DNA of 64,000 nucleotides, taken from Escherichia coli (GTDB lineage: Bacteria; Pseudomonadota; Gammaproteobacteria; Enterobacterales; Enterobacteriaceae). Below, in pieces: positions 60,001 to 63,000 of this stretch (position 1 is the stretch's first letter; every line of letters starts with the position of its first letter). A program made the position numbers. The DNA lies in the NCBI RefSeq assembly GCF_001677475.2, contig NZ_CP012498.1; one strand, given 5' to 3'.

Positions 60001-63000
60001 GGAGTCGCATCAGGGATACATCACTGAATGGTCTGTCACAGAAAATCTTAAATGCCCTGCTGTGATATTTTCAGGTTATAATGAGAGTAATGTTAATGAA
60101 ATCACTATAAAATCAGAAAGTAAAGTGAATGATGTTAAATCCAGCAATGTGATTTATGAATGTATTATTCCTGAGAAAAAACGTGAGTTGATACAAAAAC
60201 GTGCCGCAACTATGATGGCATCATGTGATGGTGAAATTAAAACTTGGTCTGGAAAAACAAATTCATGGTGGTTGTCATGTGGTGAACGTTTTTGTCTGAA
60301 TAAAAATCATTACAGAATTACTTCATTATATCTTAATGCATTAAACAATGATGCTGAGGATACTGGATATTGTAATTGTGAATTTCGTGCTTCGGATAAT
60401 AAAAATTCGCTTAGTTTTAAAGGAGAATTAAATTCCCCGGTTATTCCAGGTGTCTTACTTGCCAGAGTGGTTGGTCCTAACTCTGAAGAATATTATACAG
60501 ATAAATTAGGGCGTGTAAAAATTAGATTTCTCTGGGGGGAAATGTCCACGTCAGGTACAGAGGAAAGCTCCTGTTGGGTCCGTGTATCTCAGGCATGGTC
60601 CGGGGATGGTTTCGGTAGTCAGTTTATTCCTCGTATTGGCAGTGAGGTTCTGGTTAGTTTTATACAGGGTAATCCTGACTATCCAATTGTTGTTGGAACA
60701 GTGTATAATGGTCAGAATAAACCGCCTTTTTCTCTGCCTGAGAATAATTGTAAGTCTGGATTTGTTACCCGTAGTGTTAAGAATGGAAAAAAGGGAGAGG
60801 GTCATCAACTTGTTTTTGATGATAAAGAAAATGAGGAAAAAACCATATTAACTTCTTCTGGTGATTACCACCTGACAGTAAAGAAGGATATGATCAGCAA
60901 TATTAATAACTCAATGTCATTAACTGTTGCAAAAGGTCGTAATTCTGAAATAAAAAAAGGGAATGATAAGCTTATTCTTAAAGAAGGCAACTTGCATAAT
61001 GATGTGCATGGAAATATTGATATAAAAGTGTCAGATGGAGATTATAGCCTTAATGTGACTGGGGGCGGTGGTAGTTTTATTACTGATGAAAATCTTATAT
61101 TTGAATCAACACAATCAATAAAAATAAAAGTGGGGGCAAATGAGATAACTATATCCACATCAGGGATAAGTATAAAAGCCGCAAAAATTACCGTTGAAGG
61201 GCAAGCGTCTGCAGAGGTTAAAGCAGCCACACTTAAACTTGAAGGTCAGGCTATTTCTGAAGTAAAAGGCACTATGTTGACGCTTCAGGGATCTGCAATA
61301 ACGCAGATAAAAGGAGGAATAGTGAATATTGGATAAAGGATTTCATATGACAGATTCTAAAAACAACTCTGCTCTGGAGTTTAATAAGATTGTTGAGCAA
61401 ATGCTGCTAAAAGGAAAATGGCAGGATGCACTTAATTTCTGGATAGAGAATACAGATTCGTTAACATTAATTAAATGGCTGGCGCAATTTATCTCTCAGT
61501 CATCTTCTGAAGAAGACTCAGTGCTTTTACAATCCATTGTAAAATGGAAGGAAGGAGATGAAGAACAACGGTGGGAAATATTTAAAAACGCCGAGTCTGC
61601 AGGATTTTCTACTCAGTCAGGAGCCCTGGGGTTATCGTTATTTATATCACAAGGAAGTTTGAGTCCGACTTCATATCCACCAGTCCATGCACCGTCATGT
61701 TCAGAAAAAAAAATTATTTATGGAATATTAATGAATCAATCGTGTAAATGTTATGATACACCTGTCGAAGGGATTGTTTTTCTTTTTCAGCATTGGTGTA
61801 ATAGTTAATCTTGGGAGTTGTATATGCCTCAGCCAGCAGCAAGAGTTACTGATATGCATGTATGTCCTATGATGACGCCTGGTTTACCACCTGTTCCCCA
61901 TGTCGGTGGACCTCTGTTGCCGCCAGGCTCTCCGTCTGTACTCATTGGTGGATTACCTGCAGCTACATTGGGGACTCAGGCACTTTGTACCGGACCAGTG
62001 GATGCCGTTATTATGGGAAGTTTTAAAGTTTTTATATGCGGCAAACCGGCAGCACGAATGGGTGATATCTGTGCTCATGGGGGGACAATTGTCAGCGGAT
62101 GTCCTCAGGTATTAATGGGATAAATAATGAATAAGTTTGAGACGGATACATTACTGCTTCCTGTTATAGGAGAATCGCCGGCAGGTGATGATATTGAGTA
62201 TGATCCTGTGTATAGCGAAATACGGGCAGCAAGGCAAAATGATCCTGACTACATGTCCCAGGGAGAATGGGCTGTCAGTGAACCTCGTAGGGCTGACTGG
62301 AGAAAAGTAAGAAAATTATGTGAGGTTACTTTACGCAATAAGAGTAAAGATCTACAGATTAGTTGTTGGTATGTGGAGTCCTTGACGCATTTGTATGCTC
62401 TGGAAGGGATGAGTTGCGGACTGGAATATCTTGCTAAATTTATTTCTCAGTACTGGACTATATGCTGGCCATCCCAGGAAGAAGGGCAGGAAATTCGTTA
62501 CAGTAAACTAGTTCGTCTTGATATTGATTTGTCAGAGTATTTGAAAGCATATCCTCTTCTTGATGATAAAGAAATTACTCTGTCTAAATGGTATAAGGCG
62601 CTGTCGTTTGAGCATAGTGCGAGCTTATTAGAAGATGGAAAGGAAAAATTAATAGAAAGAGAAGGTGATCACTCTGTTGAATCGTTCAAAAAATCTGTAG
62701 GTAAATATAATGCACGCAAGATTAGTGAGCAACTTCTTAAATTTTCTGATTTACCTGACAAAATTGATGAGATTGAATCTTTTTACTTTTTTCATACTCA
62801 TGAAGATATACATAATATTTTCGCTAAAACCAGACATGCCATTAGTGAAATAATCGATTTATTGAGCCGTTTTTTACCACAAGACGTACAAGATAACAAA
62901 TCAGCAGCACAATTTTCAGTTGAACTAGAGAATATGGAGACAAAGAAAGTGTTTCCGGAGGAACAAAAGGAATTTGATACTGCATTAACAAACTCAATAG

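Follow-up and report, generated by a model that had tools for sequence, protein, structure and literature searches.

The Aai type VI secretion system (T6SS), or T6SS-3, is encoded by a gene cluster that serves as a marker of enteroaggregative Escherichia coli (EAEC) and of some Shiga-toxin-producing E. coli (STEC). We consider here one small open reading frame (ORF) of such a cluster, lying between the spike gene vgrG and the tip gene PAAR in a 64,000-nucleotide stretch of E. coli DNA (contig NZ_CP012498.1 of assembly GCF_001677475.2; the whole stretch is called the window below), where the cluster travels on a conjugative plasmid. In published work on the EAEC aai genes, aaiA-P as a block suffices for secretion of AaiC, and only aaiB, aaiG, aaiO and aaiP have been mutated individually, aaiG (vgrG) being essential for secretion. 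The gene aaiH is a listed member of the cluster that figures in the literature only in gene-presence tables; one survey reports aaiC, aaiH and aaiI as undetected in some serotypes that have the other aai genes.

The chromosomal cluster of O104:H4 has the same gene order as the window, and its hcp is labelled aaiC by RefSeq, so that the cluster in the window can be recognized as the AggR-regulated aai/Sci-2 cluster (E. coli T6SS-3) of EAEC. By gene order the ORF would be aaiH, a letter obtained by counting genes, with the O104:H4 cluster and not the sequence of strain 042 as the standard of comparison. Nothing different in kind distinguishes the two clusters; the copy in the window sits on an IncFII conjugative plasmid and the EAEC one in the pheU island.

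A sequence-only reading of the window had placed an ORF of 153-159 amino acids at 61329-61808, between vgrG and PAAR, and had offered it as a candidate adaptor, effector or immunity protein in which no domain could be recognized. The ORF is real, conserved, and intact in every E. coli carrier of the cluster, encoding 159 residues from a TTG start or 153 from an ATG; the lack of a domain is true only by eye. A Pfam-A scan of the protein identifies DUF6931 (PF22011; E 1.4e-11, residues 17-128 against model positions 3-118 of 145), its only other match being a chance one to Adipogenin; the RefSeq name of the gene is already “DUF6931 family protein,” and all homologues found have a precomputed PF22011 match. 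That the gene is catalogued in this family was already known, and as a well-defined candidate for a new T6SS accessory component it would hardly surprise a specialist. What is new here is the linkage of DUF6931 to spike genes across phyla, its fusion to FHA domains, a confident fold, and the exclusion of both TseF and the known adaptor families as relatives. We would give about even odds to a role for the protein in the cytoplasm as an accessory factor of the VgrG-PAAR spike, acting as a chaperone or assembly factor, a reading that draws on co-expression and co-inheritance with the machine, linkage to spike genes, the lack of export signals, and fusion to FHA scaffolds elsewhere.

The reading frame is uninterrupted from 61329 to 61808 on the plus strand, a TGA at 61323-61325 preceding the open stretch. 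The first possible start is the in-frame TTG at 61329; the ATG at 61347 has an AAGGA Shine-Dalgarno sequence at 6-nt spacing and is the start used by RefSeq on plasmid p1RM9088, which is 99.7% identical (WP_042965813.1). The ATG is the likelier start, which places the 153-residue gene at 61347-61808. So defined, it is separated by 10 nt from the vgrG stop at 61336 and by 15 nt from the PAAR start at 61824, and across loci the gap between a preceding vgrG and the DUF6931 gene is 2-60 nt. No promoter-like or terminator-like site rises above the shuffled-sequence level at the gene, which together with the short gaps indicates co-expression with vgrG and PAAR; the gene is internal to an operon with the order tssB-tssC-hcp-tssE-tssF-tssG-vgrG-ORF-PAAR-tssA-tssJ-tssK. 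Its GC content, overall and at third codon positions (GC3), agrees with that of its AT-rich neighbors. The predicted protein is acidic (17.3 kDa, pI 4.9) and has neither a signal peptide nor a transmembrane segment (maximum 19-residue hydropathy 0.78); the stretch LGLSLFISQGS, considered as a membrane segment, is too short and too low in hydropathy to be one.

Among 5,426 complete E. coli genomes, 98 carry the T6SS cluster (51 on the chromosome, 47 on plasmids), and the gene is single-copy and intact in all 98. Compared with the O104:H4 chromosomal allele, with which it shares 75% protein identity, the ratio of nonsynonymous to synonymous substitution rates (dN/dS) is 0.27 at a dS of 0.51, and the gene is under purifying selection; in the same comparison vgrG has a similar ratio of 0.21 and hcp one of 0.25, while PAAR stands at 0.09 and tssC at 0.04.

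The position beside the spike genes, which the sequence-only reading took to imply a spike-linked function, turns out to be strongly supported by synteny across phyla. The order tssF-tssG-vgrG-DUF6931-PAAR-tssA-tssJ is identical in 10 genomes and one metagenomic contig, the genomes being Kosakonia (2, one Kosakonia-type locus coming from an unclassified proteobacterial metagenome-assembled genome), Ewingella, Rahnella (4), Tatumella, Erwinia sp. and Yersinia massiliensis; this locus search, made by narrower alignment, reached mainly Enterobacterales genomes. Identity to the proteins of the window across the 10 genomes is 30-37% for DUF6931, 36-41% for VgrG, 38-43% for TssF and 71-76% for PAAR. 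Over a wider range, from Enterobacterales to Azospirillum and metagenomes, 23 distinct contexts were compared: vgrG adjoins DUF6931 in 21 and PAAR does so in 18, and every one of the 23 has vgrG, PAAR or both next to it.

This spike linkage persists at 20-30% identity and in differing cluster architectures. Several loci have the plain module vgrG-DUF6931-PAAR; another has hcp-hcp-vgrG-DUF6931-PAAR followed by ribosomal genes; Salmonella and a soil contig have vgrG-DUF6931-tssA without PAAR; and clpV-vgrG-DUF6931 is found at an operon end. Azospirillum picis has hcp-vgrG-DUF6931, then a gene for an FHA protein, then tssK. The DUF6931 gene may also lie upstream of vgrG, and in two cases DUF6931-PAAR is found without vgrG. 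The word-indexed homologue searches reach few named organisms, and taxonomic breadth rests mainly on matches in the AlphaFold database (AFDB); on that footing, the gene is a machine-linked one, kept beside vgrG or PAAR from Enterobacterales to Planctomycetes, and not variable cargo.

Evolutionary distances tell a similar story. Across 13 loci, the pairwise distances of DUF6931 follow those of the core proteins TssF, TssG and VgrG closely (r 0.93-0.95), which argues that DUF6931 diverged together with the machine, unlike effector-immunity cassettes or swapped cargo modules. A mirror-tree analysis aimed at a specific partner of DUF6931 returned a global correlation with all core genes and no partner-specific residual.

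How, then, does DUF6931 compare with the accessory proteins already known from this slot? The adaptors of the DUF4123 (Tap/Tec), DUF1795 (Eag) and DUF2169 families are likewise small non-core proteins, encoded directly after vgrG and before PAAR, and they bind a spike component before firing, as is proposed here for DUF6931. Membership in any of the three, which had been suggested as a check, is not found: Pfam gives only DUF6931, there is no sequence relationship, and the all-helical fold is different. Unlike these adaptors, DUF6931 co-diverges with the core machine, and its client would be the bare spike; no toxin-bearing client is encoded directly downstream, where a 99-residue PAAR protein without extension is followed by tssA.

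Another parallel in arrangement is the T6SS-5 of Burkholderia, in which TagC-5 and pentapeptide proteins are encoded by accessory genes between vgrG-5 and a short, effector-free PAAR gene (tagD-5). One of these, TagA/B-5, is reported to be needed for Hcp secretion and so to be a machine component rather than an effector. The proteins belong to DUF3540 and pentapeptide families, with three genes in the slot against one in the window, and TagC-5, though in the same slot, was rejected as an equivalent because it is a DUF3540 protein. YezP of the Yersinia T6SS-4, also considered, is not in the same slot.

The DUF6931 family is deep. An exhaustive profile search of 1.84 billion representative proteins returned 34 clusters at E <= 1e-3, one of them (P0056) a spurious match to a repeat protein; further searches found more distant members of 165-225 residues, and homologues are detectable down to about 20% identity. 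An alignment of 61 sequences has R75 in every member, with conservation of 90% or more at F99, G103, S104 and P107. The signature, which may be summarized as R..IF...GF.TP.G.LGLSLFWS.GSMSP...EPVYP and has the 61-sequence consensus R(W/R).(I/A)F...A...GF.TP.G.L(G/A)L(S/A).F.SGGS(M/L).P....P.V.PP, occupies codons 75-113 (61569-61685, plus strand), where invariant or near-invariant columns recur in three alignments. In the E. coli protein it includes R75, F79, G86-F87, L94, F99, G103-S104, P107 and P112, and it extends over helices 5-6 into the first part of a conserved non-helical loop at residues 102-118.

The cysteines are not a feature of the family. The sequence-only reading had drawn attention to a cysteine-containing C-terminus, and the peptides are indeed there (SCSEKK spanning residues 117-122 and QSCKCYD spanning 131-137; the cysteines of the protein are C118, C133, C135 and C151), but they lack meaning at the family level: C118 is tyrosine in several close E. 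coli and Salmonella alleles, and C133, C135 and C151 are gone outside the closest relatives. These are lineage-specific residues, and since no cysteine is conserved in DUF6931, a metal- or redox-binding role for them is ruled out.

An AlphaFold (AF2) model built with the 61 diverse sequences is confident, with a predicted local distance difference test score (pLDDT) of 95 and a predicted template-modelling score (pTM) of 0.88, and consists of eight helices; with 10 close sequences the pLDDT is 50, so that the deeper alignment was needed. Within the model, the non-helical stretch 102-118 is conserved and confidently placed, and bears the motif GS..P....P.V.P. The model superposes on AFDB members of DUF6931 with template-modelling (TM) scores of 0.70-0.94. 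Because a Foldseek search of the model against the PDB gives nothing at E below 1, and sequence and profile matches in the PDB are only spurious ones to designed helical repeats, the fold is essentially uncharacterised.

The FHA proteins of T6SS clusters (Fha/TagH) are cytoplasmic assembly scaffolds, and it is with these that DUF6931 is repeatedly joined. In a metagenomic protein of 302 residues (P0089), an FHA domain at the N-terminus is joined to DUF6931 at the C-terminus. A Foldseek search of AFDB50 brings up ten or more “FHA domain” proteins, 283-394 residues long, that contain the DUF6931 fold (TM 0.72-0.77), several of them from Planctomycetes. In Azospirillum picis the DUF6931 gene is followed directly by one for a 402-residue, TagH-like FHA protein. 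These fusions and this adjacency link DUF6931 to the FHA scaffolds on which the T6SS is assembled in the cytoplasm and point to a shared assembly context in Planctomycetes, Azospirillum and other carriers; E. coli differs in that FHA is absent both from the protein and from the rest of its cluster.

The proposed sequence of events can be put together as follows. The protein would be soluble, cytoplasmic and all-helical, made from one operon in step with VgrG and PAAR. It would bind the spike (the VgrG trimer, the PAAR tip, or both) through the conserved loop and helix, at about residues 75-113, and once bound might either stabilize the spike or deliver it to the baseplate or assembly platform, itself being neither toxin nor antidote. 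The physical partner, retention in the cytoplasm and the part played in assembly are what we infer in this scheme. If the protein is required, it would be a new accessory component of spike assembly, and such a role would explain the stability of the vgrG-DUF6931-PAAR module. More tentatively, and with the balance of probability against it, DUF6931 may represent a widespread new “Tag” component of the spike, binding VgrG-PAAR by its loop, handing it to the baseplate or Fha platform, and needed for firing in each T6SS lineage in which it occurs, the Aai systems of EAEC and STEC among them.

The alternative that survives best, although we regard it as unlikely (roughly a one-in-several prospect), is that DUF6931 is a conserved spike-loaded cargo, a 17-kDa protein that rides on VgrG or PAAR and leaves the cell with them, whether as an effector or as a non-toxin factor, in the manner of TseF. 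The gene lies directly after vgrG, the classic slot of VgrG-dependent substrates; its product is small and acidic; and the cluster holds no other effector candidate. Should the protein prove to be both dispensable and exported, Aai/T6SS-3 would have its first candidate substrate. Several observations sit poorly with this. DUF6931 co-diverges with core genes and is not exchanged; no immunity gene follows it, the next gene being PAAR, tssA or an FHA gene; it is kept in enteric, soil, marine and planctomycete lineages that have no obvious common target; and it is fused to scaffolds that are cytoplasmic. No toxic or enzymatic domain or marker motif was found for the protein in Pfam, NCBIfam, PADLOC, PHROGs or the PDB, DUF6931 being the sole match. 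The search of toxin families that the sequence-only reading had recommended thus gave no toxin domain in Pfam or NCBIfam, and the PADLOC, PHROGs and NCBIfam scans returned nothing meaningful, a CecR match (E 0.013; a score of 15 bits where the cut-off is 365) being noise.

TseF itself (PA2374) belongs to the H3-T6SS of Pseudomonas aeruginosa, where it is a 178-residue protein, similar in size to DUF6931 and encoded in the same position, after vgrG3, and is reported to be secreted; its homologues, too, are reported to co-localise with vgrG. A TseF sequence was recovered by means of published primers in a scan of metagenomes (contig L026, positions 1423-1959, minus strand); of the four matches in that scan, L024 was a chance one on an unrelated GC-rich contig and L025 lacked the start-primer sequence of tseF. 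Equivalence is ruled out: TseF is a MORN-like glycine/aromatic repeat protein, and hhalign gives it a probability of 0.09% when set against the profile of DUF6931. Its repeats are rich in G, H and Y, and it ends in RWRWWW. Convergent with tseF on L026, a P. aeruginosa-type contig, is a gene (165-1400, plus strand) whose product has a Cys/Gly/Pro-rich C-terminal region that looks DUF4280/PAAR-like by eye.

Somewhat less probable again is a role as an assembly checkpoint or post-translational regulator, in which DUF6931 would couple spike availability to FHA/phosphorylation-type or other licensing and would act as a switch rather than a chaperone. The recurrent FHA fusions and adjacency can be read in this way, as can the frequent neighborhood of tssA, the assembly coordinator. 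Yet no gene for an FHA protein, kinase or phosphatase is present in the clusters of E. coli, other Enterobacterales and several other loci, and the protein has no recognizable phospho-acceptor or signalling domain; such a role would in any case overlap largely with that of the spike accessory factor preferred here.

An immunity function is far less credible. The only paper found that names DUF6931, a 2026 preprint, describes vgrG-DUF6931-PAAR in Pseudovibrio and labels the family member a putative “SsdA-like immunity” protein, which would make DUF6931 a helical binder like SsdAI that neutralizes a toxin delivered by this T6SS. SsdAI is reported to bind its toxin by means of an extended loop carried by a helical scaffold, an architecture that is reminiscent of the conserved loop in the DUF6931 model and may serve as a lead but not as a sign of homology: SsdAI (PDB 7jtu_B) and the DUF416/YjaG-like structures 3f7c and 2q9r show 6-7% identity, without Foldseek or profile support. 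SsdAI is encoded beside its toxin, but no toxin neighbor is present for DUF6931; in the window VgrG matches only spike models and PAAR is 99 residues long, and the neighbors in other lineages are tssA, FHA or PAAR genes. Of the three options in the sequence-only reading, then, an adaptor- or chaperone-like protein fits, and co-divergence, the lack of toxin or cargo nearby and the FHA fusions speak against effector and immunity. That the ORF is non-functional or spurious is next to impossible and is already refuted by the conservation data, given its dN/dS of 0.27, its integrity in 98 of 98 carriers, a deep family and a confident common fold.

The surrounding cluster supplies T6SS core genes, with tssB, tssC, tssE, tssF, tssG, vgrG, PAAR, tssA, tssJ and the start of tssK, all on the plus strand. 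The operon opens with tssB for the small sheath subunit (53717-54193; TIGR03358, E 5e-49, and tssB in RefSeq on p1RM9088), followed by tssC for the large subunit (54196-55674, 100% identical to RefSeq tssC of p1RM9088). The hcp-like tube gene (55684-56190) is the aaiC/Hcp2 ortholog, the O104:H4 gene in the same position being annotated aaiC. Then come tssE (56201-56623), whose TIGR03357 match (E 2e-6) is under the curated cut-off and whose positional ortholog carries GPW_gp25; tssF (56616-58418), from RefSeq annotation and tblastn synteny; and tssG (58409-59341 with the RefSeq start, the first possible start being 58382). The vgrG gene (59354-61336) encodes a spike of 660 residues without a C-terminal effector extension, matching TIGR03361 over residues 29-520 (E 9e-106) and TssI models over the C-terminal beta-helix, residues 557-660. 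Beyond the DUF6931 gene lie the PAAR gene (61824-62123), whose 99-residue product has no toxin extension (NF033420 match; “PAAR domain-containing protein” in RefSeq), tssA (62127-63203; TIGR03363, E 3.5e-67, over cut-off), and the gene for the TssJ lipoprotein (63211-63762; TssJ in RefSeq, with a weak TIGR03352 match). Only the start of tssK is included (63781-64000, mapped from tssK of p1RM9088), since the gene exceeds the window; the near-identical plasmid p1RM9088 continues with tssL, tssM and tssH. Within the spike module there is no cargo gene, and no toxin domain on VgrG or PAAR, which match spike models only.

Some details of these genes may be of wider interest. Core genes overlap by a few codons at tssE/tssF (56616-56623) and tssF/tssG (58382-58418), consistent with translational coupling in an operon. 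The hcp-like gene (55684-56190) has no NCBIfam model match, and relative to its O104:H4 allele it shows 58% amino acid identity and a dS of 1.12; because this is about twice the value of every neighbor (0.47-0.56), the sequence comparison suggests that the tube allele was recombined or separately acquired. At 50% GC the PAAR gene stands out from a cluster of 34-36% GC, but its GC3 of 32% is like that of its neighbors, so that the excess reflects a Gly/Pro/Ala-rich composition and not a foreign origin. PAAR is also unusually conserved: its identity is 71-76% among Enterobacterales and about 60% to those remote metagenomic loci whose VgrG stands at 27-37%.

The window as a whole is part of an IncFII F-type conjugative plasmid that carries an aai-like T6SS-3 in complete form. 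Positions 1-53000 include an ORF of 1778 residues at 33058-38394, and the annotated features under matches to 39000-54000 are traI, traX, finO, repA and IS21/IS100 elements. On p1RM9088, many IS fragments flank the cluster, and a frameshifted IS110 copy (26298-27313) lies between tssK and tssL, so that this T6SS copy may be transcriptionally split or decaying. Further along the same plasmid, the segment 36451-39116 downstream of tssH holds three more genes, one for an additional ImpA_N-domain protein, one annotated as “AvrPphF family type III effector” and one hypothetical; they lie beyond the window and are possible T6SS cargo candidates.

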